Source: Bacteroidales bacterium
GTDB lineage: Bacteria; Bacteroidota; Bacteroidia; Bacteroidales; JAIPAH01
Assembly (NCBI GenBank): GCA_021738485.1
Contig: JAIPBX010000003.1
Coordinates: forward strand, 1,241-65,240
Reading direction: 5' to 3'
Length of the DNA stretch: 64,000 nucleotides
The notes under the pieces: model-generated
Database searches by the model: none
Told to the model about the DNA's origin: nothing
Seen by the model: the letters and a program-made list of their open reading frames with translations, nothing else
Made by a program: the position numbers and the translations under genes
Part shown: positions 10,944-39,723 of the stretch, piece after piece
Position numbering within the stretch: the first letter of the stretch is position 1
How the letters are laid out: every line of letters begins with the position of its first letter

Positions 10944-10963
10944 AATACTTTGGTTTTACATTA

Positions 10964-11335
10964 TTAATTTCTTGGCGTGCCGTTATCGATCCAAATCCTG
11001 ATTTTTTTCAGGTCACAATCAGGGAGTTGTTCTGCATCTTTAGGCATCGGTGTATAACCGGGCTCGTGGTTTACAGCTCCCCATAGTTGCCCGTTTTCAG
11101 CTATTGTTTTCAAATCCTGATAGTTATCAGTAAAAACCCCTGCATTAGCTGACACTTGATTATGGCAGCTATTGCAGTTGTTTTCCATAATAGGAGCAAT
11201 TTTTGTTTCGTAAGTTACATTGGTTGTGTCGCATTGGCTGCTTTGCGGATAAAGGTCTTCCTCATTATCGTAGTAGCAACCCCCAAATAAACCTGCAAAA
11301 AATATTATGGCCGGTATAAAAAAGAGTTTTTTCAT
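10964..11335 (-). CDS. Lipoprotein with one c-type heme-binding (CxxCH) PSCyt1-like module
   Basis: 123 aa. Lipobox (FAGLFGGC). Motif NNCNSCHN. Ends KKIRIWIDNGTPRN, like the planctomycete-type cytochrome c domain. Confidence 0.6.
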   Translation of the reverse strand: MKKLFFIPAIIFFAGLFGGCYYDNEEDLYPQSSQCDTTNVTYETKIAPIMENNCNSCHNQVSANAGVFTDNYQDLKTIAENGQLWGAVNHEPGYTPMPKDAEQLPDCDLKKIRIWIDNGTPRN

Positions 11336-11339
11336 GACA

Positions 11340-12346: not shown

Positions 12347-12466
12347 AAGATTGATTTTTTTCAATTAAAAAGAATTACTTCTTGCAAAATTCTTATTATT
12401 GTCACCCTAATGAGCAATAAATGTTTATTAGTAAAGTTATTAAAAAAGTTCGTAATATTTCAAGAT

Positions 12467-14809
12467 ATGATAAGAGCATTGTTTACTTTTCTGATTGTAA
12501 GCTTTTTTATGGTTTCAGGGTTACATTCGCAGGATTCGGATTTAAACCAATTTTATGATCACTTACCATATAACCAAGCTATTTCATTGGCATTTGGCGA
12601 TGACAATATATATGCCGCAACACCATTCAGCCTTTTTACATACAATTTGAATGATTATAGTGTGGAGCGCCTGACGAGGGTGGAAGGCCTAAACGATATT
12701 GATATTAGCCGGATCGACTATAATAATCAGGAAAACGCTTTGTTTATAGCCTATAAGAACACCAATATTGATCTTATTAAAGACGGCGAGATTATTAATA
12801 TTTCGGATATTAAAAGGCAGCAGATATTGGGGAATAAGACCATTAATGAGATTTATATGAAAGGCAAATACGCTTACCTTGCCTGTGGTTTTGGTATTGT
12901 GGTGGTCGACATAGTACGGGAGGAGATTCATGATACTTATAAGATCGGACCGGATGGAAGTTTGATAAATGTGTATGATTTTATCTATCATCCCGAAGAC
13001 AACCATTTTTATGCGGCAACAGAATCGGGGATATATTCCGCAGATGCTGATAGCCCCAATTTGGCTCATTTTATTTATTGGCATAAAGATACTACCCTGA
13101 GCAATAATAATGCGGTTTATAACCAGTTGGTATCGCATGGAAAGTATGTGGTGACTAATAAGCATGGAGAAGAGTATGATAATGATACCATTTTATATAA
13201 AGATGGTACAAATTGGATAAAACTGGAGGCAGAAGAAGCCCAGAATCATACTAATGCATCCAATATCCGAAGTAATGGGGATAAGTTATTGATATCCCAC
13301 ACGAGAGCCGTTCGTTTTTTTGATGATGAGTTCAATTTTACCGGAAACATTTATACTTATGGTGAAGGGAAGGTGCGTCCTAGTCCTTATGATTGCTGGC
13401 AGGATGCAGATGGAAATTATTGGGTAGCAGATGGAATACAGGGATTGGTTAAAACCCAGGGGAATTACAACACCGAATTTATAAGACCATCAGGACCCGC
13501 TTATCCGGCCTCGTTCGATATGGCTTCATTTGAAAATGATCTTTGGGTGGCCTCGGGAGGCTATCAAAGTGACTGGAGCCCTTCCGGTCTGAATAATGGG
13601 GCATACACTTATTTAAATGGTGATTGGAAATCCTTTAACCGAAGGAATATGCAAGCTTTTGATACAATACGGGATGTGGTTACCGTAGCCATAGAGCCTG
13701 GCACCGGCGAACGTATTTACATGGGTTCATGGACGCAGGGATTATTGGAATTTTCAAAGAATGATGGTATACAGCAGATCTATGATAAGAGTAATAGTAC
13801 TTTGCAGGGAAACCTTGCAGTTACGGGATATGTGCAGGTGAGTGGACTGGGATTTGACGATGAAAATAACCTTTGGGTTGCGAATACAGGGGTGAATGAT
13901 GTGCTTTCGGTCAAAAAAGCCAACGGAGAATGGAAAGCTTTTAATTTAGGCTCACAATCCAGTGGAAGTTTTATCGGAGAGATGATCGTTGATGCGAATA
14001 ACCAGAAATGGCTGCTTACAAGAGAACATGATATACTGGTGTTTGATGATAACGGCACAATCGATCAAACGCAGGATGATAATGTCAGGATACTTACTTC
14101 TGCCCAGGGGAATGGGAACTTGCCGGGTTCGCAGTCTGTATATTCCATAGCCGAAGATTTGGATGGCAATATTTGGGTAGGAACCGATGAAGGCGTGGGA
14201 GTTTTTTATAATCCTGAGAATGTATCGGCCGGCGAACCTGTCAATGCTGAAAAACCGAAGGTGGAAGTGGATGGGTACGTACAGTATCTTTTAAGTTCTG
14301 AAAAAGTTACGTCAATTGCCGTAGACGGCGCTAACAGAAAATGGTTTGGTACGGAAAGAGCCGGTGTATTTTTGATGTCGGAGGATGGTACGGAACAGAT
14401 CAAGCATTTTAATATTGATAACAGCCCGTTATTCTCCAATGAAATTAACTCTATGTCTATTACTGATAATGGGATGGTTTTTATAGGAACCTCCAAAGGA
14501 ATAATATCTTACAAGAGCGATGCTACTCCGGCACCTTCTTCCAATGACATTTTTATCTATCCTAATCCGGTAACCAAAGGTTATGAGGGACCTATTTACA
14601 TAGAAAACCTGGTGAAAGATGCTAACGTAAAAATTACTGATATTAGTGGGAATATTGTTTATGAAACCACTGCCAAAGGAGGGTTGGCTACATGGAAAGG
14701 AGCTGATTTTGGGGGTGAGCGAGTAAAAACAGGGTATTATTTGGTTTTTGCTTCTAATGAGGACGGAAGTGAGGCCATTGTATCAAAAATTCTGGTAATT
14801 GACCAATAA
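12467..14809 (+). CDS. porZ: T9SS protein with two beta-propeller-like regions and a C-terminal sorting domain, PorZ-like
   Basis: The track ORF starts at 12410. I prefer the signal-peptide start MIRALFTFLIVSFFMVSGLHSQ at 12467. The N-terminal block LTRVEGLNDIDISRIDYNNQENALFIAYKNTNIDLI is PorZ-like. The C-terminus IYPNPVTKG...KITDISGNIVYE...GYYLVFAS is a T9SS CTD. Confidence 0.6.
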   Translation: MIRALFTFLIVSFFMVSGLHSQDSDLNQFYDHLPYNQAISLAFGDDNIYAATPFSLFTYNLNDYSVERLTRVEGLNDIDISRIDYNNQENALFIAYKNTNIDLIKDGEIINISDIKRQQILGNKTINEIYMKGKYAYLACGFGIVVVDIVREEIHDTYKIGPDGSLINVYDFIYHPEDNHFYAATESGIYSADADSPNLAHFIYWHKDTTLSNNNAVYNQLVSHGKYVVTNKHGEEYDNDTILYKDGTNWIKLEAEEAQNHTNASNIRSNGDKLLISHTRAVRFFDDEFNFTGNIYTYGEGKVRPSPYDCWQDADGNYWVADGIQGLVKTQGNYNTEFIRPSGPAYPASFDMASFENDLWVASGGYQSDWSPSGLNNGAYTYLNGDWKSFNRRNMQAFDTIRDVVTVAIEPGTGERIYMGSWTQGLLEFSKNDGIQQIYDKSNSTLQGNLAVTGYVQVSGLGFDDENNLWVANTGVNDVLSVKKANGEWKAFNLGSQSSGSFIGEMIVDANNQKWLLTREHDILVFDDNGTIDQTQDDNVRILTSAQGNGNLPGSQSVYSIAEDLDGNIWVGTDEGVGVFYNPENVSAGEPVNAEKPKVEVDGYVQYLLSSEKVTSIAVDGANRKWFGTERAGVFLMSEDGTEQIKHFNIDNSPLFSNEINSMSITDNGMVFIGTSKGIISYKSDATPAPSSNDIFIYPNPVTKGYEGPIYIENLVKDANVKITDISGNIVYETTAKGGLATWKGADFGGERVKTGYYLVFASNEDGSEAIVSKILVIDQ

Positions 14810-23572: not shown

Positions 23573-24685
23573 CTATTGTTCGATGATGCGGATGAGTTCA
23601 TCGCGGACCCGTATAATGTCAAACTCCTCTTCTGCCATTCTTCGGCCATTTTTTCCAAGGGTTTTCCGTTCATCCGGGTGATAATGAAGATATTCGATTT
23701 TTTCCACCAGCGATTCAATATTTCCGTTGTCGATAAGGAAACCGTTTTTTCCATCTTTTATAAGCTCAGGATTGGAGCTGACATTAAAACCAATCACCGG
23801 TCTCCGGCAAGCCATAGCCTCTGCGATAACATATCCAAATCCCTCCCAGTAGGAAGTTAAAACAAAGACATCAATTTCGTTCATAAATCGTGCAGTATCA
23901 TCAACAAATCCGGGCAACACGAAATACTCTTCCAAACTTTTTTCTTTGATTTTGTGCCGGATGTCTGCTTTAAGCTTGCCTTCCCCACCCAGGATGATTT
24001 TGAAAGGTACTCCCTTTTCCCTGAGTTTTTCGGCAATTTCAATAAAGCGGTGCAGGCCTTTTTGTTTCACAAAGCGCCCGAGGCTGCCGATAACGATTTG
24101 ATGTTTTTCGTTAGCCTTCCCATTACCGCAGTTGTAATTTTCCAGCTTAAGGCCGTTGTAAAGAACCCGGATTTTCTCCCTGGAGATGATATGAGGATTA
24201 TTTGTGAGGATGGTATCCCTGGTGGCTTTTGAATTGACAAGTACCAGGTCCAGGATGTTTCGGTAAAGATAGCGGTTAAGTATGGAGTTGTTTACAGGAA
24301 TAGCACTTCCGCGGCGGTATATGATTTTTGAAACCCCGGCTTTTTGGGCTGCCGGCCCGGCTGTTTTCAAATCGCTGGGAAGGTTCATGATGATGACAGA
24401 AATCGGATTTTTAGAGAAAAATCTTCTGAGTTTGGCCTCCATGAAAGGGTTTAAAAAGCTGAGATTGTTAATTCCAATGCTTATATTTTTTAGTCCTGAG
24501 GCCAGATATTTTTGTTGAAGGGCACTGTTTTTAGCGGTAATGGTGAAAACCCGATAACCTTGGTTTTTTAACATCAGGGCCATATCATAATGCCATTTCT
24601 CTCCACCGCCCCATGCCTTGGCAGTATTACAAAAACAGATGACCGGAGCGGTTTTTTCGTGGGTTGATGTGTCCTCCATTTCCAT
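23573..24685 (-). CDS. Glycosyltransferase family 4 (GT-B fold)
   Basis: 370 aa. C-terminal EGFGYVIAEAMACRRPVIGFNVSSNPELI block, typical of the GT4 E-x7-E region. Confidence 0.8.
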   Translation of the reverse strand: MEMEDTSTHEKTAPVICFCNTAKAWGGGEKWHYDMALMLKNQGYRVFTITAKNSALQQKYLASGLKNISIGINNLSFLNPFMEAKLRRFFSKNPISVIIMNLPSDLKTAGPAAQKAGVSKIIYRRGSAIPVNNSILNRYLYRNILDLVLVNSKATRDTILTNNPHIISREKIRVLYNGLKLENYNCGNGKANEKHQIVIGSLGRFVKQKGLHRFIEIAEKLREKGVPFKIILGGEGKLKADIRHKIKEKSLEEYFVLPGFVDDTARFMNEIDVFVLTSYWEGFGYVIAEAMACRRPVIGFNVSSNPELIKDGKNGFLIDNGNIESLVEKIEYLHYHPDERKTLGKNGRRMAEEEFDIIRVRDELIRIIEQ

Positions 24686-24782
24686 GTAAATAAAAAGTTT
24701 GTGTTCTGTGATTACAAAGATAGGGAATAATTCAGGTGCTTATTCTTACTCCTTTATGGAGGTGGGGTTAACCAAACTGGTT

Positions 24783-25625
24783 TTAAAGAAGTAACTGACG
24801 GGTTTCACGGGCATAAGCGATACATTTATTCCAATCATCATGATATTCTTCGTCTATTTGTTTTAATTCCTGATTTGGAATAAAAGCACTGTCCGGTTCG
24901 GCTTCAGGAAGGAAGTTAGCAGTATAAGCAACCGTGTGGAGAAAGAGCTGACTGATTTTTTTATACAGTTTTTTCAGAAAAGTAATTTTGATTTTTTGAG
25001 GTTGATAAACATAAAAACGATTAAACTTGCGAACCCATTTCAGTTGATGTTCGGAATAGGATTTTTTTACGGTTGATAGTTGAATCCGGGTTTCATCATA
25101 GCTAACATTGACATATCCGGCAATAATACGTATGGTATCTAGCGGAGCCTTTTTGAGCTCTTCCTGAAAAAGGACTAACGGGCGATGCCCGAAAGAGCGC
25201 TCAAGGTGTTTGATTTTTGTGTAAAAGTCAAGATTCATGCGTATTTCCCGACCGGTTGCTGTTTGCGGATCGATGAATTGGTCAAAAGAGGATTTGCCGT
25301 GTTTCCGTATATAGTATTTGTATTTGGACCGTAACCAGGAGCTATGTTTACGTAAAACGATAATAGGATAAACCGTAGAGAAATTCTCCCGGACTTTCCC
25401 GATTTTCTCTTCAGAGCTTTTGTTTCCGGGATGTGGAGTGAATTCAACAGATAAAAGGACATGTTGGGTGTTATTGGATTCGATAACCTTTTCATGTCTT
25501 TTAAAGTCGTGCTTTTTAACGTATGTGATGTCTTGAAAATAAGGGAAAACCCTTCTTTGCAAAAACGTAGATGCTGTTTTTGGTAGACCGACATGGAAAT
25601 AAGCTACTCTTGAATTTTCTGTCAT
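24783..25625 (-). CDS. Sulfotransferase-fold protein, paralog family member 1 (most divergent)
   Basis: 280 aa. HVGLPKTASTFLQ (5'-PSB-like), IVLRKHSSWLRSKY (3'-PB-like), RPLVLFQ, DDWNKCIAYA. Confidence 0.6.
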   Translation of the reverse strand: MTENSRVAYFHVGLPKTASTFLQRRVFPYFQDITYVKKHDFKRHEKVIESNNTQHVLLSVEFTPHPGNKSSEEKIGKVRENFSTVYPIIVLRKHSSWLRSKYKYYIRKHGKSSFDQFIDPQTATGREIRMNLDFYTKIKHLERSFGHRPLVLFQEELKKAPLDTIRIIAGYVNVSYDETRIQLSTVKKSYSEHQLKWVRKFNRFYVYQPQKIKITFLKKLYKKISQLFLHTVAYTANFLPEAEPDSAFIPNQELKQIDEEYHDDWNKCIAYARETRQLLL

Positions 25626-25805
25626 CCTTGCCCCGATTAATTATTCTGCAAAAATAAGTCTTTGCCCTAAGAACCAAAACAAAATAATACCCGATTAAAT
25701 CATTCGTGAATAATAATATAACTCATTGCCTGTCCCGGTCGTAGTCAATAATAATTGTGATTTATAGCTTCTGTTGTTTCATTTTCCCAGCTTTCTCTTT
25801 CCACT

Positions 25806-26636
25806 TCAATACAGCGGAGGGTTGTTTTCTTGAGCATATTGAACACACTTTTGCCAATCATTATAGTAATGCTCCCGGATTTTTTTTAATTGGTCCTGCG
25901 GTACCAGCGATTTATGATTTATCCATGCCTTCGGCAGTAGTTTGGCAATGTAAAGGGTAGCGTATCGGATTAGTCGGTTATAGAGGCGACGCATTTTGCC
26001 GCGTTTGGTATGTCCCGGACGGTGAATTTCTTTGAAAATGGTGTTTTGGGTTACCCACAACCTGAATTTTAATTCCTTATCCCTGTAAGATTTGTGGCGT
26101 GGTTTGTATGAAATAGGGCCCATATCTTTTATTCCTGCATAATTTGCTATTTGTTGAATAAATTTTTTCGGCTCATTTTTTAAATCATTGTGAAAAAGAA
26201 CGAGAGGTTTTTGAGAAAAGTGGCTTTCAAGAAATTTTATTTCAGGATAATAATATAAATCTTCAATTTTCCATGTTCCCTTATCATTTTCAATATCAAA
26301 AAACTCATTGAAATTTTCTTTTAATCCCCGCTTGATAAGGAACCGATAATACGAGGCTATCCACTCATCATGATGGCGAAAAACAATGATTGTTTTAGCA
26401 TGAGGATATTTTTGAGCGAATTTTTTAATCTTTGGATAGAAGTCATGGCGCCCGAATTCATGGGAAAGCAAAACCTTTTTATTCGGATGCCTGGCCACAA
26501 TGTCATCAATATATCGATAATTGCGTTTTATGACATAGTGTACGTCTTTAAAGTTAGGAAACACAGAACGCTGTAAAAAAGTAGTCCCGGTTTTTTCCAG
26601 GCCTACATGAAATATTATTTCGGGATGTGTTTTCAT
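25806..26636 (-). CDS. Sulfotransferase-fold protein, paralog family member 2
   Basis: 276 aa. HVGLEKTGTTFLQ, IVFRHHDEWIASYY, KPLVLFH, NDWQKCVQYA. Confidence 0.6.
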   Translation of the reverse strand: MKTHPEIIFHVGLEKTGTTFLQRSVFPNFKDVHYVIKRNYRYIDDIVARHPNKKVLLSHEFGRHDFYPKIKKFAQKYPHAKTIIVFRHHDEWIASYYRFLIKRGLKENFNEFFDIENDKGTWKIEDLYYYPEIKFLESHFSQKPLVLFHNDLKNEPKKFIQQIANYAGIKDMGPISYKPRHKSYRDKELKFRLWVTQNTIFKEIHRPGHTKRGKMRRLYNRLIRYATLYIAKLLPKAWINHKSLVPQDQLKKIREHYYNDWQKCVQYAQENNPPLY

Positions 26637-26783
26637 TTATTTATTATTTTTTTGAAGAGCCACTGCAAAAGTAATAAGTTTATACTCTTTGGCGTTTAAA
26701 GAAATAGTTTTTAGATTGTGTCCCTGTCTGTGATAGGGCTTTTTTGTAAATGAAGAATGTAAAAAGATATACCTAATACAACG

Positions 26784-27734
26784 ATGAAGATTAGTGGTTT
26801 TACCATGGCTCGCAATGCCAATAAGCTATATTATCCAATACGGCAATCTATAGAATCAATGTTACCTATCTGTGATGAGTTTGTTGTGGCTCTCGGTGAA
26901 TGCGACTCGGATGATGCTACGCGCCAGGAGATAGAGGCTATAGACAGTCCGAAGATTAAAATAATCGATACGAAGTGGGACCTTGAAAAATATCCGCATG
27001 GATCAGAGCATGCCCATCAAACAGATATTGCCAAAGAGGCCTGCTCGGGCGATTGGTTGTTTTATCTTCAGGCGGATGAAGTGGTCCACGAAAAAGATTT
27101 ACCGATTATACAAGAGCAATGCCGCCGTTTTTTAAGCGATAAGGAAGTGGAAGGTTTTTTATTCAATTATTACCATTTTTTCGGGGATTACTCCCATTTT
27201 CATTTTGCTCATGGATGGTACAAGAAAGAAATCAGGATAATACGTAATGATCCGCAGATTCACTCCTGGCGTTCGGCTCAGTCTTTTCGGCGAATCCCGG
27301 ATTTTGACGGGATTCATTACCGCGAAAAGAAGGGCACTTATAAGTTGCAGGTAGTACCCATAAAGGCCAGTATTTTTCACTATGGGTGGGTGCGGCCCCC
27401 GCGATTGATGAAGAAAAAAATGAAAGCCTTTTCGGTGATTCATAGTGGTCCAAGAGCGGCCGCAAAAAAGCATAATGATTTAAACTTCGATTATGGACCT
27501 TTAAATAAACTCAGAAAATACAAAGGAACCCATCCTAAGGTGATGCATGATTGGATGAGGCATTTTGACTGGCGTGAGGAACTCAATTATTCAGGCACTT
27601 ATCCTGTAACCAGGCGAAAGCTTCGCCATGAAACCTTAAAAAATAGACTTATCTCATGGGTGGAAAACAACTTGCTTGGGGGCCGAACCATTGGGGGCTC
27701 CAAAAACTGGATTCTTTTGCGTAGAAGAAAATGA
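26784..27734 (+). CDS. Glycosyltransferase family 2-like protein
   Basis: 316 aa. N-terminus ISGFTMARNANKLYYPIRQSIESMLPICDEFVVALGECDSDDAT...YLQADEVVHE resembles a conserved Bacteroidota GT2 (GT-A, DxD-like ADE) group. Confidence 0.6.
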   Translation: MKISGFTMARNANKLYYPIRQSIESMLPICDEFVVALGECDSDDATRQEIEAIDSPKIKIIDTKWDLEKYPHGSEHAHQTDIAKEACSGDWLFYLQADEVVHEKDLPIIQEQCRRFLSDKEVEGFLFNYYHFFGDYSHFHFAHGWYKKEIRIIRNDPQIHSWRSAQSFRRIPDFDGIHYREKKGTYKLQVVPIKASIFHYGWVRPPRLMKKKMKAFSVIHSGPRAAAKKHNDLNFDYGPLNKLRKYKGTHPKVMHDWMRHFDWREELNYSGTYPVTRRKLRHETLKNRLISWVENNLLGGRTIGGSKNWILLRRRK

Positions 27735-27779
27735 AGTTAGTGATTAAAATCATGATTCGTTTAAGCTAATAACTGAAAA

Positions 27780-29378
27780 ATGAAAATTGGACGCTTTGAA
27801 ATAAGTGCGGAATATCATCACATTTTTTACATTGTTACTTTATGCTTTGTTTTATTTACTTTGCCTTTCAGCTATCGTGCCATGTCGAGCATAGGCATAA
27901 TTGTCATGACCATAAATTGGTTATTTGAGGGGCAATTCCAGGGGAAACTTCAACGCTTAAAATGTAATCCGGGGATTTGGATCCTGGCTTCTTTTTATTT
28001 GACAGGTGTTTTGGGAGCATTGTACAGTGATAATTTTCAACAGGTCATTCATCACCTTCAAAATGGCCTGGCTTTTTTTATCGTACCTTTTATTGTGGGT
28101 ACCTCCCGGCCTTTGAAATTTAAAGAAGTGCGTTATTTGATTCTTACGCTGACTGCTTCGGTCGTTTTAAACTCTATTGTAAGTTATGCGATTTTGGCAA
28201 ATATTTTGGATGTTGAGGTTACGAATTTTCGACAATATGCTTATTTAACCTCCAATGTTCATCTTTCCTATATGTCTATTATCGCAGTGGCAGCTCTCTT
28301 TTATTTTGTTACCCGAAAGCGAAAGTTATTGAGCCATAAGGAGTACTTGCTGTCCATAGTTCTTATAATCTGGATGACCGGTTATGTCTTTTTTTTGCGT
28401 TCCTTCTCAGGGGTTTTAATCATTTCAGCTCTTGCCTGGTTGCTTTTGGTAAAAAGATCATTAAAAATTGCTTCCCCGGTCAAATATCTTTTTTTGTTGT
28501 TACTCCTCAGTTTACCCCTTGTGCCGCTTTATATTTTTAACCAGATATATACCGGAAATTTTTCAGATTATAGCTTTGAGGCCGACACGCTGTCCCAATA
28601 TACTGCCAAAGGAAATAGCTATACTCACGATACTACGAATTTTCACCTTATGGAGAACGGTCGTTATATTGGCTTGTATCTTTGCGAGAAAGAACTGAAA
28701 CAGGAATGGAATGAAAGAAGCAACATAGTTTATAGTGGAGATGGTAAGAAGGGCCATCCCATACGTAAAACTCTTATCAGGTACATGACGGCCAAACATT
28801 TGAGAAAAGATTCCGCCGGATTTGCTGAAATGACGAAGCAAGACATTCGTAATGTCGAAAATGGGGTCCCTAATCCGCTTTATAAAAAAAACACAGACCT
28901 CTATTATCCGAGGCTCTATACGTTGGCGCAAGCAATTTATTTTTACAAAAAAACGGGTCGCCCTTTCGATTCGGTAACCAAACGCATGGAAGGTTATCGG
29001 GCCATGCTCTCAATCTTTAGTAATAACCCTGTAAGTGGGGTTGGTACCGGGGACATTAAAAATGCATATGACTCCTACTACCAGCAAAAGTATGGCCGGA
29101 TTAAAGGTTTCGTTGGAGGACACAACCAGTATTTAAAATCGTTGGCGACCTTTGGTATTATAGGTTTTGTGTGGTTGATAGTGTCCTTACTGGGATCATG
29201 GATAGTTCAGAAAGGGTGGAAATATACGATGGCTCAGATGATTTTAGTCGTAATATTGCTTTCAATGATCTCCGAAGTGCCTTTTGATCAACAAAGGCCC
29301 GCTATTCTCTTTAGTGTTTTCTACAGCCTGATTCTATTCAGGAAATTGCTGACAGGAGACAAAACCTACGATTTATAG
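27780..29378 (+). CDS. O-antigen ligase/polymerase-like (Wzy_C-type) polytopic membrane protein with a large soluble loop
   Basis: 532 aa. About 10-12 TM segments. A ~170-aa hydrophilic insert, then SGVGTGD...GGHNQYLKSLATFGIIGFVWLI, typical of the O-antigen ligase family. Confidence 0.65.
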   Translation: MKIGRFEISAEYHHIFYIVTLCFVLFTLPFSYRAMSSIGIIVMTINWLFEGQFQGKLQRLKCNPGIWILASFYLTGVLGALYSDNFQQVIHHLQNGLAFFIVPFIVGTSRPLKFKEVRYLILTLTASVVLNSIVSYAILANILDVEVTNFRQYAYLTSNVHLSYMSIIAVAALFYFVTRKRKLLSHKEYLLSIVLIIWMTGYVFFLRSFSGVLIISALAWLLLVKRSLKIASPVKYLFLLLLLSLPLVPLYIFNQIYTGNFSDYSFEADTLSQYTAKGNSYTHDTTNFHLMENGRYIGLYLCEKELKQEWNERSNIVYSGDGKKGHPIRKTLIRYMTAKHLRKDSAGFAEMTKQDIRNVENGVPNPLYKKNTDLYYPRLYTLAQAIYFYKKTGRPFDSVTKRMEGYRAMLSIFSNNPVSGVGTGDIKNAYDSYYQQKYGRIKGFVGGHNQYLKSLATFGIIGFVWLIVSLLGSWIVQKGWKYTMAQMILVVILLSMISEVPFDQQRPAILFSVFYSLILFRKLLTGDKTYDL

Positions 29379-29389
29379 ATTTCGGGAAA

Positions 29390-29420
29390 TTTGCAGAAAA
29401 TGCAAATAAACATACATTTG
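29390..29420 (+). promoter_or_regulatory. Bacteroidota sigma-A type promoter (TTTG-N19-TACATTTG) for the 29492 gene
   Basis: TTTG at 29390-29393, a 19-nt spacer, then TACATTTG at 29413-29420. This is an exact match to the -33/-7 consensus TTTG / TAnnTTTG, about 70 nt upstream of the ATG. Confidence 0.55.
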
Positions 29421-29491
29421 CAGATGTAAATCAATGGCTTACAAGGTTGATTAAATAATAATACAATAGGTTAGTAACAAGATCTGTACAA

Positions 29492-30307
29492 TTGATGGAA
29501 CCGACAATTTTTTGGCATGTAGGTTTGGGAAGAACGGCTACCACATTCATGCAATCCCAGGTATTTCCAAAACTTAAGGGTGTGTACTATATCAGTAAAA
29601 AGAATTTTAAAAATGCTGATGAAATCATTAACCAAACTCATCATAATAAATACCTTCTTTCCCATGAATTTAATCGTGATCTCAACGAAGTGCTTAGAAA
29701 CTTTTCCCGAAAATATCCTGATGCGAGGATTATTATTGTGCTGCGAAAGCACGAAGAATGGATAGCTTCGCACTACCGGCGTGTTGTGAAAAACGGGTCC
29801 CCCTGTCTTTTCAAAGAGTATTTTGATGCTGACAATAATAAGGGGACGTGGAAAATCGACGACTTGTATTATTATCCGAAACTTAAGTGCATTGAAAAGA
29901 ATTTCAATCATAAACCTCTAGTGCTTTTTCATCACGATTTGAAGGAGCGCCCGGAATATTTTTTAAATCAAATACTTAAATATTTAGGCATTAGCCAGTA
30001 TGATCCGATTTCTTTCAAGGCCCGCCATACTTCCTACAAAGATAAAGAGCTGAAATTTCGCCGATGGGTTACCCGTCATACTTTCCTGAAAGAACGAGAA
30101 TATCGAGCCAGACATCTTCGTGGCGGCATGATTCGCTTTATGAATAAAACCTATCGCTATGTTGTTTTATACCTGGCACGTCTCATACCGGATGCCTTGC
30201 TGAGTGATGAACCCCTCATCCCACAGGAAGAACTGGATAAGATTAAAGCTATGTATAAAAACGATTGGGAGCGATGCCAGCAGTATGCCCGTGAAAATAA
30301 TCCTTAG
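29492..30307 (+). CDS. Sulfotransferase-fold protein, paralog family member 3
   Basis: 271 aa. HVGLGRTATTFMQ, IVLRKHEEWIASHY, KPLVLFH, NDWERCQQYA. Closest by eye to member 2. Confidence 0.6.
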   Translation: MMEPTIFWHVGLGRTATTFMQSQVFPKLKGVYYISKKNFKNADEIINQTHHNKYLLSHEFNRDLNEVLRNFSRKYPDARIIIVLRKHEEWIASHYRRVVKNGSPCLFKEYFDADNNKGTWKIDDLYYYPKLKCIEKNFNHKPLVLFHHDLKERPEYFLNQILKYLGISQYDPISFKARHTSYKDKELKFRRWVTRHTFLKEREYRARHLRGGMIRFMNKTYRYVVLYLARLIPDALLSDEPLIPQEELDKIKAMYKNDWERCQQYARENNP

Positions 30308-30348
30308 CATTTGATCTCAATCCTGATATTTTTTTTAGTGATGTGAGC

Positions 30349-30499
30349 GAGGCTGTCCAAAAAGCAAAAATTTTATCCATGAAATAATTCGATACACACG
30401 AATAAAAATTAAAACATAATGATATTCAGCAACTTCCCTTTAGGGAATTTAAGGGTAAAAGTTGCTGAATATCTTTCCGGCCGGTTTTTGGACAGACTC
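30349..30499. repeat. Nested inverted-repeat element between convergent genes
   Basis: Outer inverted repeat: GAGGCTGTCCAAAAA (30349-30363) / TTTTTGGACAGACTC (30485-30499), 14 of 15 complementary. Inner perfect 15-bp inverted repeat: GATATTCAGCAACTT (30421-30435) / AAGTTGCTGAATATC (30459-30473). The inner pair encloses CCCTTTAGGGAATTTAAGGG. Confidence 0.8.
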
Positions 30500-30586
30500 G
30501 GCAAAAATTCCCCAACAACCTTCTCTTAGCCCTCTTTAGCAGGCTTTTGGAGAATATCGCAACAAATGGGGAAAACCCATACAGCA

Positions 30587-31417
30587 TCAGGTAATCTTAT
30601 CATCCGAATTTTTGCGGGCATAATCCAGGCACTTTTGCCAGTCGCGGGCATAATGAGTTTTAATTTCTTCCAGCTCCGCGGGGTCGATTAATGGAATTTC
30701 TTCTGAAGTATCTTTTGGGAAAAGAAAATGCAAATACATGATCAGATGACAAAACATCTTTCTAAAACGTCGTTCAAAAGCGTTATCGTTTTTTATGTGT
30801 ATCCCGTTCCATTTATAAAAAGTTTTTCGGGCAATGTTTCTCACCGTTTTTAACTGATTTTCATTGTATGATACATGTTTTGAAGTGAGTGAAATAGCAT
30901 TGATATCATAATCGGTTCCGGTAAAAGTGGCTATTTTATTGAAAAACTGTCTGGGATGATCTTTAAGCTCTTCGTGGAATAACACAAGGGGTTTGTGGTT
31001 AAACTGCGATTCCAGGTGTTTTATCCGCTCATAAAAATTCAGTATGTTTTTATCCCAACGGCCTTGATTGTTTTTAATATCGATAAACTCTTTGAAAGTA
31101 ATCCCGCGTCCGTTTTTGGTAAGGCGTCTGTATTGAGAGGCGATCCATTTATCATGTCTTCTTAAAACCAAAATCGGATGAGCATCAGGATACTCTTTTG
31201 CAAACTTATTGGTTTCTGCAACAAATTGTCGGTCAAATTCCCTGGAAACAAGATATTTGTTATGGTTGGTGGTTTTAATTATCCGTGATGCTTGATTGTA
31301 TTTTGTGCGTTGGATATAGCAAATGCCTTTGAGCTTAGGGAAGAACTTATATTGCAAATAGGTTGTCCCGGTTTTACCCAATCCGGGATGAAAATAGATC
31401 GCTTTCTTTTGCTGCAT
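30587..31417 (-). CDS. Sulfotransferase-fold protein, paralog family member 4
   Basis: 276 aa. HPGLGKTGTTYLQ, LVLRRHDKWIASQY, KPLVLFH, RDWQKCLDYA. Confidence 0.6.
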   Translation of the reverse strand: MQQKKAIYFHPGLGKTGTTYLQYKFFPKLKGICYIQRTKYNQASRIIKTTNHNKYLVSREFDRQFVAETNKFAKEYPDAHPILVLRRHDKWIASQYRRLTKNGRGITFKEFIDIKNNQGRWDKNILNFYERIKHLESQFNHKPLVLFHEELKDHPRQFFNKIATFTGTDYDINAISLTSKHVSYNENQLKTVRNIARKTFYKWNGIHIKNDNAFERRFRKMFCHLIMYLHFLFPKDTSEEIPLIDPAELEEIKTHYARDWQKCLDYARKNSDDKIT

Positions 31418-31582
31418 GATTATTCCTGTTAAATTTGCTCCGCCATCAATTTTGGTTTTTGTATTGCAAAAGTATCAAAAGCTTTTGGATTCGGAACGAA
31501 CACATGCCGGCAAAGTGCTCTTCAGCCTTGCGTAAAAGGCGTGTTAACCCCGAAATATAAGAAGAGGTTTAAAACAAAGGTA

Positions 31583-32479
31583 ATGAACGAAAAAAAAGAA
31601 TACCGGCGAGGTTTTAGAAATGATTACCGTAAAGGAATGCCTTTACCGGAAATGGTTTATAAAGAGATACTATTTGCTTTCCAGGAATTAGGAAATTTTT
31701 TCAACAATGGTTTCAGATCCAAAACTTTACTTGCTTATCCACACTTTCCCAGCCGCCATTCGGCCCTTTACAAACTGTGTCGGTTTATGAATTATAATAT
31801 GACCAATCGTATTAACCGGAATTTCGATATAGCTATATATTACGAGGATGCCACCCATAGAGAGCAATTTGCCGAGATGGAAGAATTAGCTACACGCAGG
31901 AAAGTTATTAACCTTTATTCAAGAGATATAAGTAAGCAAAATGTAGAGAAACATTTTAGGGAAGTTTTTGGTTATTCCAGCTTTTGCGACCCCACCAATT
32001 TTGAAGGATTTTGTGTTAAAAAGAGTGATGCTAACGCCGCCCATGACGGGGAGGTTGTTCAATGTCCGGTTGATAAAAGGGAACCCGGTTATGTGTATCA
32101 AAAACTGCTGGATAACACCACTGCCGGCCATATGCACGAAGATATACGTATACCGGTGATTGCGGGTCAAATTCCTTATGTTTTCCTGCAATATCGGCTT
32201 CCTGAAAACCGGTTCAGCATTGCCAAAGCGGGCAAGCTAAAAAACTCCCAAGAGGTTCTTTCTGATCAGGAAAAAGAGAAGGTGGTTGAGTTGAGCAGAA
32301 GATTGAACCTGGATTTTGGGGAAATGGATGTTATCCGACACAAAGAGGATAAGAAAATTTATGTGATTGATGTCAATAACACCCCGAGCACGCGCGCCCG
32401 GCTTTTTAGTAAAAAAGCATACCGCCCTTTTCTGGATAAGCAGGCGGAGATTTTTAAACAGGCCTTTGGAGCACCTTGA
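31583..32479 (+). CDS. ATP-grasp-like enzyme of unknown substrate
   Basis: The track ORF starts with GTG at 31541. I prefer the ATG at 31583 (MNEKKEYRRG). Blocks FCVKKSDANAAHDGEVV, YVYQKLLDN, EDIRIPVIAGQIPYVF and FGEMDVIRHKEDKKIYVIDVNNTPS follow the ATP-grasp order (phosphate-binding strand, hinge, Mg-binding end). Confidence 0.45.
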   Translation: MNEKKEYRRGFRNDYRKGMPLPEMVYKEILFAFQELGNFFNNGFRSKTLLAYPHFPSRHSALYKLCRFMNYNMTNRINRNFDIAIYYEDATHREQFAEMEELATRRKVINLYSRDISKQNVEKHFREVFGYSSFCDPTNFEGFCVKKSDANAAHDGEVVQCPVDKREPGYVYQKLLDNTTAGHMHEDIRIPVIAGQIPYVFLQYRLPENRFSIAKAGKLKNSQEVLSDQEKEKVVELSRRLNLDFGEMDVIRHKEDKKIYVIDVNNTPSTRARLFSKKAYRPFLDKQAEIFKQAFGAP

Positions 32480-32630
32480 TAAAAGGTGCAATGTAAAACC
32501 CGGCTGAAATTTTTTACCTGGATGTTATATTTAGTAACTTTCTGTTTATCTGATTAATTTTATGAAAAATGAAAATCAGCTTCTGAAATTTTAAGGAAAG
32601 TATTATAGGAATAATCAGTATGTGAGTTGA

Positions 32631-33407
32631 TTAAAGGTAGTCTAATTCTTTTAATAGAGCGACTATTTGCTGGTTGTTCATAATGTTTTCAACTTCTTTG
32701 TTGTATTCCGGACGCTTCCATTTACCTATGGATTGCGGATGAAGGCTGCTGATTTCATTTTCAAAGAGCGCATTGCTTTTTCGAATGTCGGTATTGTTGT
32801 GCCAGTAATGAATATCGTTGGTATATTCCAAATCAAGAAAACCTAGAAGGTCTTTCATCATATTTTCATAGTTCAGGATCAAATCTTCATATTTTAGCGT
32901 GTATACACAAGGATGATTTTTGTGAGCCAAACCCTTACTCACATCTCCTATCCAACGCTCAGGAGAAACCCATTTTTTCTCCGGTGAATCGGGATGTTTG
33001 GAAAGAAGAACGTCCCTGGCATCTCTGACAATATGAATAAATTTTACCTTCTCATTAAAGTAAGACATAATTTCGGGGATGTGGCGAATATTGGAGGGGG
33101 CTTTGGTGCAAAAGCGCGTTGTTTGGCTCGGAATCCTGTGGGTAAGTACATGGCGATAGAGACGATCAATCCGCGCTGGATAAACTCCGTTGGGCGATTT
33201 TTTCCATTGGTTAAAAGCCCCGATTTCTGAAGGAAAAGCAAAAATTTTATCATGGGCCGAAAGTATTGACATCAACAATGTAGTTCCCGACCTTGCACAT
33301 CCGCCAATGATAATGGGGTTTTGGAAAAATACGCGGTTGAGTTTTCTTTCTCCCAAAGCACTGATTAAGGGACGAAAAAGCTCTTTGAAAAGATATTGCC
33401 TTTGCAT
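32631..33407 (-). CDS. Sulfotransferase family protein (canonical type, unrelated to the four paralogs)
   Basis: 258 aa. 5'-PSB IIIGGCARSGTTLLMS and 3'-PB FIHIVRDARDVLLS. Confidence 0.75.
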   Translation of the reverse strand: MQRQYLFKELFRPLISALGERKLNRVFFQNPIIIGGCARSGTTLLMSILSAHDKIFAFPSEIGAFNQWKKSPNGVYPARIDRLYRHVLTHRIPSQTTRFCTKAPSNIRHIPEIMSYFNEKVKFIHIVRDARDVLLSKHPDSPEKKWVSPERWIGDVSKGLAHKNHPCVYTLKYEDLILNYENMMKDLLGFLDLEYTNDIHYWHNNTDIRKSNALFENEISSLHPQSIGKWKRPEYNKEVENIMNNQQIVALLKELDYL

Positions 33408-33558: not shown

Positions 33559-33771
33559 ATGAATCAAAAGATGCAATACAAATGCCCTAAGTGTGGAAAT
33601 ACGCAGTATCAGGCAGACAAAATGCGGGCTACCGGCGGCGCTTTTGCTAAAATATTCGATGTGCAGAATAAAAAATTCACAACGGTGACCTGCACCAATT
33701 GTGGATATACCGAGCTTTACCGGGGCAATACAAGTTCGGCAGGAAATATTCTGGACTTTTTTACCAGCTAA
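33559..33771 (+). CDS. Zinc-ribbon domain protein
   Basis: 70 aa. CPKCGN...CTNCGYTE pairs. Confidence 0.6.
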   Translation: MNQKMQYKCPKCGNTQYQADKMRATGGAFAKIFDVQNKKFTTVTCTNCGYTELYRGNTSSAGNILDFFTS

Positions 33772-37917: not shown

Positions 37918-37935
37918 CACTCGCCAATATGGTAT

Positions 37936-38019
37936 GCCCAGGTGGCGGAACTGGTAGACGCGTTGGTCTCAAAAACCAATGGGGTAATACCCGTGCCGGT
38001 TCGATCCCGGCCCTGGGTA
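37936..38019 (+). tRNA. tRNA-Leu (anticodon CAA), class II with long variable arm; CCA not encoded
   Basis: Hand-folded. Acceptor GCCCAGG/CCTGGGT (G1-U72 wobble). D region GTGGCGGAACTGGTAGACGCG. Anticodon stem TTGGT/ACCAA with loop CTCAAAA. Variable arm TGGGGTAATACCCGT. T arm GCCGG-TTCGATC-CCGGC. Discriminator A. Confidence 0.9.
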
Positions 38020-38021
38020 CA

Positions 38022-38051
38022 AAAGCTTTCTTGAAAAAGAAAGCTTTTTTT
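38022..38051 (+). terminator. Intrinsic terminator after tRNA-Leu
   Basis: 11-bp perfect stem AAAGCTTTCTT (38022-38032) / AAGAAAGCTTT (38037-38047) with loop GAAA, running into a T7 run. Confidence 0.75.
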
Positions 38052-38091
38052 GTATCTTTACAATTTAAATATACGAATACGTTTTTAAAAG

Positions 38092-39723
38092 ATGTCGAAA
38101 ATAAAGATTTATCTCCCTATAGCCATAGCCATAGTTTTGGCTGCCGGTATTTGTCTGGGCTACAACATGAAAACAGGGCAGTCGGATTCCGGGCAGATAC
38201 TACGCCTCGGAAGGGGGAAAAGCAAGGTTTCTACCGTTCTGGATTATGTCAAAAAAGATTATGTTGATTCGGTTAAGACCAGTAAATTAGAGACCAAGGC
38301 AATTAAAGAGATATTGTCTGACCTGGACCCTCATTCTCAATATATTGCATCTGAAGAATTTAATGATGTGAATGATCCTTTAAAGGGAAACTTCGAAGGA
38401 ATCGGTGTGCAATTCCGCATTGAGAAAGATACGGTGATGATTATTCGCGCGATTAGTGGCGGTCCATCCGAAAAAGTGGGTATTCGTGGTGGTGACCGGA
38501 TTGTCACTATTGAAGGGGATACCGTGGCCGGTGTTGGCATATCGAATGATGAGATTATTAACCGGCTTAAAGGAGAAAAAGGGACCAAAGTACAAGTAGG
38601 GATATTTCGCCGGGGTGTGGATGATCTGGTACACTTTACGATTACACGTGACGTTATACCGACTTATAGTGTAGACATCTCATTTATGCCTACCGATTCG
38701 ACTGGATATATAAAATTAAGCAAATTCTCGGCTACTAGCTACAAAGAGGTGAAGAAAGCCCTGACAAAGCTCAATGATCGGGGCATGAATAATTTAATCC
38801 TTGATTTACGTTCTAATGCAGGAGGCTATTTGCAATCGGCCATAAAGTTAACCGATGAGTTTTTAAAAGATGAACAGCTTATTGTTTATACGGAGGGACG
38901 AAATCGTCCTAAGAAACATGCATATGCCACCGGCAAAGGAGCTTTTGAAGAACAGGATCTGGTGATATTGATAGACGAAGGTTCTGCCTCCGCCAGTGAA
39001 ATTCTTGCCGGAGCTGTGCAGGATAATGACAGAGGACTGATTATTGGGCGGCGTTCTTTTGGTAAAGGCCTTGTGCAGGAACAAAAGCGCCTTAAAGATG
39101 GGTCTGCCGTGCGTCTTACCGTGGCTCGTTATCATACTCCTACAGGAAGGTGCATCCAGCGGCCTTATGAGGAAGACCGAAAAGAATATTATCATGATAT
39201 CTATGACCGCTGGAAAAACGGTGAGCTGGAATCACCGGATAGTATCCGGTTTAATGATTCTCTTAAATATCAAACTCCGGCGGGAAGAACAGTTTATGGC
39301 GGCGGCGGTATTATGCCCGATATTTTTGTATCAATAGAAGAAGAACGGACGAATGATTATATCGGAGATTTGATGCAGAAAGGGGTTTTTTACCGGTTTG
39401 CTTTTGATTATGCCGATAGAAACAGGCAGAAGCTTAAAGAGTATGATTCGGCTCAGGATTATATTAAGGAGTTTACCGTGGACGCTGAGTTGTTAGAGAA
39501 ATTTTTTCAAAATGCCAAAGAATCAGGGGTCCCCAAAAACGATCAGTTATACGAAGAGTCCCTCCCGGAGATTAAGAATTTGCTGAAAGCCTTGATAGGG
39601 CGTAATATTTTTGACAATGAAGGGTTTTATCCGGTTTATTTAAAAACAGACAGTATTTTTCAAAAAGCCCTGAGAACTGTGCAAAAGGATGTTGAGGCAG
39701 TTATGAAAAAGAAAGCTTCATAA
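38092..39723 (+). CDS. S41 family C-terminal processing peptidase
   Basis: 543 aa. N-terminal TM. PDZ block (GIGVQFRIEKDTVMIIRAISGGPSEKVGIRGGDRIV). LILDLRSNAGGYL. Catalytic GSASASEILAGA and GRRSFGKGLVQ. Confidence 0.85.
   Translation: MSKIKIYLPIAIAIVLAAGICLGYNMKTGQSDSGQILRLGRGKSKVSTVLDYVKKDYVDSVKTSKLETKAIKEILSDLDPHSQYIASEEFNDVNDPLKGNFEGIGVQFRIEKDTVMIIRAISGGPSEKVGIRGGDRIVTIEGDTVAGVGISNDEIINRLKGEKGTKVQVGIFRRGVDDLVHFTITRDVIPTYSVDISFMPTDSTGYIKLSKFSATSYKEVKKALTKLNDRGMNNLILDLRSNAGGYLQSAIKLTDEFLKDEQLIVYTEGRNRPKKHAYATGKGAFEEQDLVILIDEGSASASEILAGAVQDNDRGLIIGRRSFGKGLVQEQKRLKDGSAVRLTVARYHTPTGRCIQRPYEEDRKEYYHDIYDRWKNGELESPDSIRFNDSLKYQTPAGRTVYGGGGIMPDIFVSIEEERTNDYIGDLMQKGVFYRFAFDYADRNRQKLKEYDSAQDYIKEFTVDAELLEKFFQNAKESGVPKNDQLYEESLPEIKNLLKALIGRNIFDNEGFYPVYLKTDSIFQKALRTVQKDVEAVMKKKAS

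Follow-up and report, generated by a model that had tools for sequence, protein, structure and literature searches.

The subject of this analysis is a gene cluster in a 64-kb stretch of DNA (hereafter the window, at its full length of 64,000 nucleotides) from a metagenome-assembled genome (locus-tag prefix K9J27) of an uncultured Bacteroidales bacterium of a saline lake. The cluster holds four paralogous genes of one family (P1-P4), predicted to encode sulfotransferases, and a fifth sulfotransferase gene of a canonical type (ST5). These five genes are placed among genes for a family 4 glycosyltransferase (GT4), a GT2-like protein, a membrane protein with a Wzy_C domain and an ATP-grasp enzyme. 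Positions 23573-33407 most likely represent a cell-envelope glycan locus that is chromosomal, conserved and inherited vertically, and that amounts to ten genes when the adjoining lipid kinase is counted (Table 1).

Gene content, layout and inheritance of the locus

All five open reading frames (ORFs) that a preliminary description of this DNA had assigned to sulfotransferases were present in the ORF listing, with the coordinates and strands given in Table 1. For P3 an alternative start, the ATG at 29495, gives a protein of 270 amino acids (aa), which is the NCBI call. The genes of the locus are distributed over the two strands and make up at least four transcription units, and the ratio of sulfotransferases to glycosyltransferases is 5:2. 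A promoter and terminator scan of the window gave counts close to the shuffled expectation and was uninformative.

Table 1. Genes of the sulfotransferase-rich locus, with positions in the window and the basis of each assignment.
Feature	Coordinates	Strand	Basis
YegS/DAGK-type lipid kinase, 336 aa	22513..23523	-	NCBIfam TIGR00147 E 5e-52
GT4 glycosyltransferase, 370 aa	23573..24685	-	Pfam Glycos_transf_1 E 1.3e-38, Glyco_transf_4 E 2.4e-10
P1, most divergent sulfotransferase-family paralog, 280 aa	24783..25625	-	Full-length alignment with P2-P4
P2, sulfotransferase-family paralog, 276 aa	25806..26636	-	Pfam and AlphaFold2 model
GT2-like (GT-A type) protein, 316 aa	26784..27734	+	Sub-threshold Pfam
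Wzy_C-domain membrane protein, WaaL/PglL-like ligase, 532 aa	27780..29378	+	Pfam Wzy_C
P3, sulfotransferase-family paralog, 271 aa from TTG	29492..30307	+	Sub-threshold Pfam, 51% identity to P2
P4, sulfotransferase-family paralog, 276 aa	30587..31417	-	Sub-threshold Pfam, paralog alignment
ATP-grasp enzyme, 298 aa from M15 (ORF opens at GTG 31541)	31583..32479	+	Predicted fold
ST5, canonical TPST-like/Sulfotransfer_3 sulfotransferase, 258 aa	32631..33407	-	Pfam Sulfotransfer_3 E 7.9e-22

Comparison of the window with loci from related metagenome-assembled genomes (MAGs; loci carry numbers with the prefix L) revealed a conserved gene order. On a 505-kb scaffold (L001) the order is identical, namely lipA, lipB, ispG, a yegS-type lipid kinase, GT4, P1, P2, the GT2-like gene, the Wzy_C gene, P3, P4, the ATP-grasp gene, a sulfotransferase gene, a Zn-ribbon gene and glyS, and the orthologs of the four paralogs are 82-89% identical. 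The arrangement of the window was also found in L010 (85% identical), L011 and L012. In L004-L006 the locus is rearranged and lacks the GT2-like gene, and a molybdoenzyme operon parts the GT4-P1 pair from the remainder. The operon that splits the locus is of the dimethyl sulfoxide reductase type (Molybdopterin, 4Fe-4S and DmsC) and was located at 12526-16383 in L004 and at 9455-13312 in L005.

The gene set had at first been called an island, a term that does not suit it, since related MAGs have the locus in synteny, flanked by ispG/yegS and glyS. A mobile island was rejected: the synteny with the housekeeping flanks is conserved, and no integrase was found in the window scans (Pfam on ORFs of at least 150 aa not overlapped by a longer annotated ORF, which is the scope of the window negatives throughout). 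The GC content is slightly lower in the locus (0.38-0.40 versus 0.40-0.45). The only tRNA gene of the window, tRNA-Leu(CAA) at 37936-38020 (+), is 4.5 kb away, and none flanks the locus. A 112-aa ORF at 37929-38267 (+), which overlaps this tRNA gene and the start of an S41 peptidase gene, is almost certainly spurious. Between ST5 and glyS sits a 70-aa Zn_ribbon_13 ORF (33559-33771, +; E 1.9e-31), which is kept at the matching place in L001 and L004-L006.

P1-P4 as a sulfotransferase subfamily

The four paralogs align end to end, as the preliminary description had claimed. Pairwise identities (BLASTP, about 270 aa) are 51% for P2-P3, 43% for P3-P4, 39% for P2-P4, 35% for P1-P2, 33% for P1-P4 and 32% for P1-P3. 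P1 and P3, one of the two most distant pairs, align with an E-value of 2e-44, which is far beyond chance. All four motif blocks read exactly as they had been written down. Block (i) occurs in the four paralogs as HVGLPKTASTFLQ, HVGLEKTGTTFLQ, HVGLGRTATTFMQ and HPGLGKTGTTYLQ and block (ii) as VLRKHSSWLRSKY, VFRHHDEWIASYY, VLRKHEEWIASHY and VLRRHDKWIASQY; block (iii) is (K/R)PLVLF and block (iv) is DWx(K/R)CxxYA. Blocks (i) and (ii) had been taken for the motifs that bind 3'-phosphoadenosine 5'-phosphosulfate (PAPS), and both the conservation and the predicted fold agree with this assignment.

Conservation was counted over the four paralogs and 112 full-length representatives from an exhaustive profile search (116 sequences; P2 numbering). 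The putative 5'-phosphosulfate loop, H-x-G-x-x-(K/R)-T-x-x-T, was found in P1-P4. Among its residues, H10 is kept in 112 sequences, G12 in 113, K/R15 in 115 (K in 80 and R in 35) and T19 in 100, and Q22 is kept in 111. S58 is kept in 104 of the 116 sequences and E60 in 112. R87 and S95 are each kept in 114 and Y97 in 111, and the spacing R87-x7-S95 is exactly that of the classical 3'-phosphate-binding motif. D260 and W261 are each kept in 113. Position 149 is tyrosine in 53 sequences, histidine in 29 and phenylalanine in 17. Overall, the putative PAPS-binding residues (the Lys/Arg of the K/R-T-x-x-T loop and R-x7-S) and the invariant glutamic acid are conserved in 96-99% of the sequences.

P1 retains K15, E60 and R87-x7-S95. 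In P3 arginine replaces lysine at position 15, as it does in 35 of the 116 family members; this is no defect, because arginine at this loop position is normal in enzymes of the tyrosylprotein sulfotransferase (TPST) type. Since P1-P4 keep every residue counted above, no window paralog looks inactive. By analogy with the heparan sulfate 3-O-sulfotransferases (3-OST), E60 could serve as the catalytic base.

Analysis of the fold by Pfam (for P2), by a profile search of PDB sequences and by Foldseek gave agreeing results. P2 exceeded the Pfam gathering scores of Sulfotransfer_1 (27.3 bits, cut-off 22) and Sulfotransfer_3 (28 bits, cut-off 27). P3 matched Sulfotransfer_4 and Sulfotransfer_3, and P4 matched Sulfotransfer_3, Sulfotransfer_4 and Sulfotransfer_1, in each case below threshold. 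A family alignment of 22 sequences (A2) was used to build an AlphaFold2 model of P2, which reached a mean predicted local distance difference test (pLDDT) score of 90.6 and a predicted template modelling (TM) score of 0.87. In the Foldseek comparison of this model with the PDB, all top 50 matches have the PAPS-sulfotransferase fold; among them the best TM-scores (0.55-0.6) belong to heparan sulfate 3-OST-3 and 3-OST-1 and the best E-value (3.6e-5) to the bacterial sulfotransferase 3rnl. The A2 profile matched 32 PDB sequences at E<=1, and 32 of the 32 are sulfotransferases, with SULT1A1 as the best (1.6e-6). In the profile alignment block (iii), KPLVLF-(Y/H)-(E/D)-D-L-K, falls on the SULT1A1 segment VLYLFYEDMKENP, which carries Tyr193, the residue that stacks on the PAPS adenine. 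P2 was the paralog modelled, and for P1, P3 and P4 the fold is predicted from their full-length alignment.

No Stf0-type or Sulfotransfer_2 match occurred among the Pfam matches at E<=1 for any of the five sulfotransferases. In NCBIfam neither these five enzymes nor the GT2-like protein had a match, and direct PDB sequence searches with P1, P2 and the GT2-like, ATP-grasp and Wzy_C proteins yielded nothing useful. A sulfotransferase fold and conserved PAPS-binding residues, on which the first assignment depended, were both found, and the assignment of P1-P4 as PAPS-dependent sulfotransferases is well supported by motifs and predicted structure. No signal peptide or transmembrane segment was found in any of the five sulfotransferases, and the beta-1 strand of the P2 model begins at about residue 7. 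Because such segments are missing, the five enzymes are predicted to be cytoplasmic, where PAPS is.

The closest solved folds are heparan sulfate 3-OST-1, 3-OST-3 and 3-OST-5 and the sulfotransferase domain of heparan sulfate N-deacetylase/N-sulfotransferase (NDST), with which P1-P4 share the PAPS-sulfotransferase fold at TM-scores of 0.5-0.6. The likeness extends to the lysine-containing 5'-phosphosulfate-binding loop, the R-x7-S 3'-phosphate-binding motif and a glutamic acid (E60) downstream of the loop, and it implies a carbohydrate acceptor for P1-P4. Unlike these enzymes, P1-P4 are bacterial and cytoplasmic and have no membrane anchor; identity is only 10-18%, and P1-P4 are set apart by a helical region at the C-terminus, about 90 aa long and specific to the family, that ends in DWx(K/R)CxxYA.

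The fifth gene had been described as a canonical-looking sulfotransferase, and ST5 indeed matched Sulfotransfer_3 above threshold and also Sulfotransfer_1 (E 6.3e-13). Its PDB matches are tyrosylprotein sulfotransferases; its loop reads GGCARSGTTL and its 3'-phosphate motif RDARDVLLS. In sequence ST5 is unrelated to P1-P4. No ST5 ortholog was found in L001 or L004. The slot is occupied there by another Sulfotransfer_1 gene (12934-13761, +, in L001 and 10859-11689, +, in L004), 49% identical between the two loci and on the strand opposite to that of ST5. The fifth sulfotransferase is therefore not a conserved part of the locus, and its slot varies.

The exhaustive profile search (1.84 billion representatives) gave 176 proteins at E<=1e-30; with the threshold relaxed to 1e-10 and 1e-3 the number rises to 1698 and 6248, and the tail of the search merges with the general sulfotransferase superfamily. 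A very rare family was considered and rejected, as the 20 clusters of a word-indexed search proved to be a sensitivity artefact. One peptide pattern alone was found in at least 128 loci of species-representative genomes. Most loci are from Bacteroidota MAGs (Bacteroidales, Salinivirgaceae, Chitinophagales, Cytophagales and Saprospiraceae), and further loci are from Caldithrix, Marinimicrobia, Delta- and Gammaproteobacteria, Hippea and Desulfurellales. Among the carriers are Saccharicrinis sp. FJH62 (L071) and MAGs of the genera Marivirga and Salinivirga. Isolate names (Tobar, Great Salt Lake, a BS-150m sample and a SulCav sample) hint at saline, sulfidic or stratified waters. The view of P1-P4 as an uncharacterised paralog family holds in that no characterised member was found; the family is, however, neither rare nor wholly unannotated (176 clusters; NCBI names P2 a 'sulfotransferase domain-containing protein' and P3, like the ATP-grasp protein, 'hypothetical').

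A neighbour-joining tree of 105 family sequences resolved four orthogroups for P1-P4. The P1 and P4 orthogroups are both represented in the Salinivirga/Salinivirgaceae MAG loci L048, L054 and L087, and P1 also in L047 and L070; a cluster of P4, P1 and GT4, in some cases with an MsbA-like gene, was found in these five loci of Salinivirgaceae and other Bacteroidales. The P2 and P3 orthogroups are sisters and are confined to the lineage of the window. Since P1 and P4 are more widely distributed, a two-paralog ancestral module appears to have grown to four, each copy being retained. Retention of four orthogroups at 82-89% identity in L001 in turn suggests non-redundant and probably regiospecific roles.

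PAPS supply, glycan neighbourhoods and partner proteins

No PAPS-supply genes had been seen in the window, and cysD, cysN and cysC were likewise not found in the 64 kb by Pfam or six-frame phmmer; sulfatase genes were not found by Pfam on the scanned ORFs or by six-frame phmmer either. Elsewhere, PAPS-synthesis genes lie beside family members in six loci from three unrelated lineages. In Saprospiraceae (L053, 7064-10837; L056; L073) cysD, a cysN-cysC fusion and the family gene stand in a row on one strand. In Desulfurellales (L085, 9176-15253) the family gene is followed by cysD, cysN and cysC, and in Hippea (L062, 2578-4106) directly by cysD. In a Bacteroidales MAG (L058) an ORF resembling adenosine 5'-phosphosulfate (APS) kinase is 0.8 kb from the family gene. 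Operons that appear to join a family sulfotransferase with PAPS synthesis occur in two or three independent lineages, and this adjacency indirectly supports the prediction that P1-P4 transfer sulfuryl groups from PAPS. A Bacteroidales sulfotransferase with such neighbours is BT0416 of Bacteroides thetaiotaomicron, a single cytoplasmic PAPS-dependent cholesterol sulfotransferase that has a locus of its own beside cysD, cysN and cysC, with a host sterol as acceptor. Compared by description only, the present locus differs from that of BT0416 in having five sulfotransferases amid glycan genes and no PAPS genes found in 64 kb.

Of the Pfam families found in the 137 genes that directly adjoin a family gene, GT4 was the most frequent (12), followed by ABC transporter (7; four of these, with ABC_membrane, are MsbA-like), GT2 (5), Glyco_tranf_2_4 (4), APS kinase (3) and GT9 heptosyltransferase (3). 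In Marinimicrobia (L008, the same as L019; 4590-13372) the order is an MsbA-like gene, the family sulfotransferase, GT4, Sulfotransfer_2, an unknown gene, GT9, Sulfotransfer_2, GT4 and the GT2-like gene, which gives three sulfotransferases of two families in a cluster that resembles one for an LPS (lipopolysaccharide) core. L008 is from a Candidatus Neomarinimicrobiota MAG of the Tobar sample series, and L020 is similar in look. Envelope-glycan sulfation may be common to unrelated phyla of one lake. The Bacteroidales locus L047 contains GT4, GT2, an MsbA-like gene, a P1-like gene, GT4 and a P4-like gene. In a gammaproteobacterium (L025) GT9 is directly upstream of the family gene on the same strand, and in Marinoscillum (L063) the order is sulfotransferase, GT4 and GT2. 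Inner-core or MsbA genes were found beside family members in L008, L025, L047, L054 and L070. The glycan context noted for the window is therefore real and recurs in other genomes (GT4, GT9, MsbA-like).

Analysis of the partner proteins gave firm and less firm assignments. The GT4 named in the preliminary description as a flanking gene was recovered by Pfam (E 1e-38), and the GT4-P1 pair is kept in L001, L004, L010, L011, L013, L047 and L070. The 532-aa protein likened to O-antigen ligases also stood, with a Wzy_C match (E 5.9e-10; 39.6 bits) above the Pfam cut-off of 31.7; NCBIfam gave matches below cut-off only. A hydrophilic loop of about 190 aa (258-449) follows its N-terminal block of transmembrane segments and precedes three C-terminal ones. 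The motif H448-N-x9-G-xx-G is intact. The motif H[NSQ]x9Gxx[GTY] is common to WaaL ligases and PglL/PilO oligosaccharyltransferases; the Wzy_C protein thus carries the histidine motif expected of a WaaL type, and a PglL type is predicted equally well by it. The gene is kept in L001, L004-L006, L010, L011 and L012.

The assignment of the GT2 is less firm, its two Pfam matches being sub-threshold (Glyco_tranf_2_4 at E 1.4e-3, with 19.5 bits where the cut-off is 27.5; Glycos_transf_2 at E 0.024). Its family is very large, with 7238 homolog clusters at 90% identity, a few of which have a precomputed PF00535 match. Members from Bacteroidota, Calditrichaeota and Gemmatimonadetes share about 60% identity and are nearly always annotated as 'hypothetical'. 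The gene adjoins family sulfotransferases in L013, L032, L057, L066 and L088 and shares a cluster with them in L008 and L020; in Calditrichaeota (L091) a glycosyltransferase operon that runs divergently from an MsbA-like gene begins with it. The protein is apparently a conserved envelope enzyme, so far uncharacterised.

The ATP-grasp enzyme, too, matched only below threshold by sequence (Pfam RimK, E 4e-3; NCBIfam MptN, E 6e-6), and here the fold confirmed what had been proposed. The AlphaFold2 model (pLDDT 91.8) gave 175 PDB matches at E<=1e-3, and the best 50 of the 175 are all ATP-grasp enzymes. The top matches are the inositol-pyrophosphate kinase domains Asp1, Vip1 and PPIP5K2 (E 2e-9), followed by ArgX/LysX, PylC, Ddl, RimK and PsnB. 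The segment GE.D..R...Y..DvNnTP, including E247, D249, D263 and N265, is invariant and fits the Mg-ATP site. On this basis the enzyme may be either a kinase acting on a polyanionic sugar or an amine-carboxylate ligase. With 42 homolog clusters the family is a rare one, and its members are almost without exception unnamed or 'hypothetical' (among the named, all but one). The gene is syntenic in L001, L004-L006, L011 and L012. An ATP-grasp enzyme whose best structural matches are kinase domains for inositol hexakis- and pyrophosphates, ranking before the usual carboxylate-amine ligases, is an odd partner in a sulfation locus.

Proposed product, alternatives and significance

On balance, the locus probably directs cytoplasmic multi-site sulfation of a lipid-linked oligosaccharide, the product being a multiply sulfated LPS core, a lipooligosaccharide or a single O-unit. 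The GT4 and the GT2-like enzyme would assemble an oligosaccharide, linked to a lipid, on the cytoplasmic side of the inner membrane. P1-P4 and ST5, as five soluble cytoplasmic PAPS-dependent enzymes, would each O-sulfate a separate position of it. The ATP-grasp enzyme would use ATP for one more modification: a phosphate group, or an amine or amino acid joined through an amide bond. The polyanionic glycan would then be flipped by an MsbA/PglK-type transporter encoded outside the locus and handled or ligated in the periplasm by the WaaL-like Wzy_C protein. The identity of the acceptor, the use of a single molecule by all five enzymes and the order of the steps are as we infer them. An LPS-type product is favoured because the conserved core of the locus includes a protein of ligase type and because the family is tied to GT9 and MsbA-like genes in other phyla.

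The enterobacterial waa locus for the LPS core provides a parallel. It is chromosomal and encodes GT4-type glycosyltransferases, the WaaL ligase and the cytoplasmic core kinases WaaP and WaaY, which act before flipping by MsbA. The logic is the same, in that anionic groups are added before flipping, with sulfate from PAPS in place of phosphate from ATP; this is not homology, and unlike the waa locus the window yielded no GT9 or WaaA. For LPS sulfation itself, the sole well-established precedent is LpsS of Sinorhizobium meliloti, a PAPS-dependent LPS sulfotransferase of the Stf0 family (PMC12445080), to be compared with rhizobial NodH and with KpsS. Unlike LpsS, the window proteins have no Stf0 match, and a single gene in Alphaproteobacteria contrasts with a five-sulfotransferase locus in Bacteroidota. 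No characterised pathway with this gene set was found, the literature on sulfated LPS in Bacteroidota included, in agreement with the preliminary description.

Several observations weigh against this proposal. P1 by itself has no Pfam match, and the Pfam scores of P3 and P4 (17-21.6 bits) stay under the cut-offs of 22-27. About two thirds of the single-copy family members are in non-glycan neighbourhoods, so the acceptor of the family may not be uniform. GT9, WaaA, lpx and MsbA were absent among the scanned ORFs of the window, so that the assignment to LPS leans on other lineages and on the Wzy_C protein, for which a PglL-type O-oligosaccharyltransferase or a polymerase is an equally good reading. 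PAPS-supply genes were not found in the window. With two glycosyltransferases against five sulfotransferases, part of the pathway must lie elsewhere, and the sulfated product itself is a prediction.

It is rather unlikely that the product is something other than LPS. Candidates would be a sulfated capsular or secreted polysaccharide, or a sulfated glycolipid in free form, such as a glycosyl-diacylglycerol that the GT4 would synthesise and an MsbA-like pump would export. In NCBIfam the GT4 does resemble diacylglycerol and phosphatidylglycerol glycosyltransferases weakly (E 1e-12 to 1e-13), but it is closer to polysaccharide and LPS GT4s (E 1e-28 to 1e-30). Likewise the YegS-type lipid kinase adjoins the GT4 in L001, L010 and L011 but not in L004, L047 and L070, and its membership of the pathway is uncertain beyond its being a syntenic neighbour. 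Lipid A is not the exclusive cargo of MsbA-like exporters, and the relatives are from saline habitats, where sulfated glycolipids and polymers are common. Against these points stand the GT9 heptosyltransferases beside the family in three lineages and the ligase-type Wzy_C protein as a conserved core member.

For a polymer in particular there are precedents: several sulfotransferases occur in known loci for sulfated capsular or extracellular polysaccharides (PMC11641403, PMC8205485). In Synechocystis 6803 the synechan (xss) cluster has two sulfotransferases, eight glycosyltransferases and Wzx, Wzy and a polysaccharide co-polymerase (PCP), and its eight glycosyltransferases and two sulfotransferases matched eight sugars and two sulfates (PMC8205485). 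Like xss, clusters for sulfated capsular polysaccharide in marine Vibrio and Cobetia have more than one sulfotransferase, of different subfamilies (PMC8205485, PMC11641403, PMC11766843). These clusters have in common two to three sulfotransferases, many glycosyltransferases and Wzx/Wzy/PCP or ABC export, and that of Vibrio also includes a cysNDC copy. Unlike them, the window locus has five sulfotransferases to two glycosyltransferases, and polymerisation, export and PAPS genes were not found: Wzx, a polymerase partner, a chain-length regulator, Wza/Wzc, KpsMT and an initiating phosphoglycosyltransferase were all missing from the scanned window ORFs. Since such genes are missing, a core or ligase locus fits better than a polymer locus.

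A protein O-glycan, in which the Wzy_C protein would act as a PglL-like transferase of a sulfated oligosaccharide from undecaprenyl phosphate onto periplasmic or outer-membrane proteins, is improbable. The H448 motif is shared by both types, the loop of about 190 aa is unusually large and atypical for WaaL, and Bacteroidota possess a general O-glycosylation system. Also, a PorZ-like component of type IX secretion (12410-14809, +; PorZ_N_b_propeller, E 3e-40) is encoded about 8 kb upstream of the locus; PorZ of Porphyromonas handles anionic LPS for cargo attachment. However, no flippase and no additional glycosyltransferase set typical of O-glycan loci was found in the window, and the GT9 and MsbA-like links outside Bacteroidota point to LPS.

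There is similarly little likelihood that the paralogs do not cooperate, having diverged to separate acceptors such as small molecules, lipids or several glycans, or become in part dead scaffolds that were clustered by tandem duplication. Such a history would agree with the mostly single-copy members elsewhere in heterogeneous non-glycan surroundings, with the both-strand layout in at least four transcription units and with the unrelated sulfotransferase in the fifth slot of L001 and L004. But all invariant family residues are kept in P1-P4, none of which looks dead, and several MAGs preserve, despite rearrangement, both the four orthogroups and their interleaving with the glycosyltransferase, Wzy_C and ATP-grasp genes. 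Least of all is it to be expected that P1-P4 are other P-loop nucleotide-binding enzymes that merely resemble sulfotransferases: the missing or sub-threshold Pfam matches of P1, P3 and P4 and the modest Foldseek values (E about 1e-5, TM-score at most 0.6) would allow it, but every significant Pfam, PDB-profile and Foldseek match has the sulfotransferase fold, conservation extends to both PAPS-binding motifs and to the position that stacks on the adenine, and cysD, cysN or cysC adjoin family genes in three lineages.

Bacterial carbohydrate sulfotransferases are a group of which 'relatively little is known' (PMC11641403), and sulfated polysaccharides were called exclusive to cyanobacteria as late as 2021 (PMC8205485). 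The locus defines a coherent, conserved sulfotransferase subfamily. Its structure is modelled with confidence, its PAPS-binding residues are mapped, and its gene neighbourhoods clearly link it to PAPS synthesis and to glycosyltransferases of LPS type. Sulfation of surface glycans by PAPS enzymes is known already; what is new is an uncharacterised, sizeable subfamily and an LPS-type locus dense in sulfotransferases. If the proposed multi-site sulfation is true, the product would be an outer-membrane glycolipid with an exceptionally high sulfate density. Provided that no further glycosyltransferases take part, two glycosyltransferases and five sulfotransferases would, by the counting logic of synechan, give more than one sulfate per sugar. 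Such a glycolipid would bear on envelope stability in saline or sulfidic water, on the sulfur and phosphorus economy of the cell and on recognition by phages and hosts, as well as on the search for regiospecific sulfotransferases with which sulfated glycans could be made.

A wider proposal, which we advance tentatively and regard as doubtful, is that in this Bacteroidales lineage sulfate esters replace phosphate as the main anion of the LPS core or lipooligosaccharide. A polysulfated glycolipid with more than one sulfate per sugar would in that case be the work of a family of regiospecific cytoplasmic sulfotransferases, perhaps also in a wider range of the Fibrobacterota-Chlorobiota-Bacteroidota (FCB) group and in other bacteria of sulfate-rich stratified or saline waters. 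The ATP-grasp enzyme would add another charged group, and the outer membrane would have a phosphorus-sparing, cation-binding chemistry that is undescribed in any bacterium.

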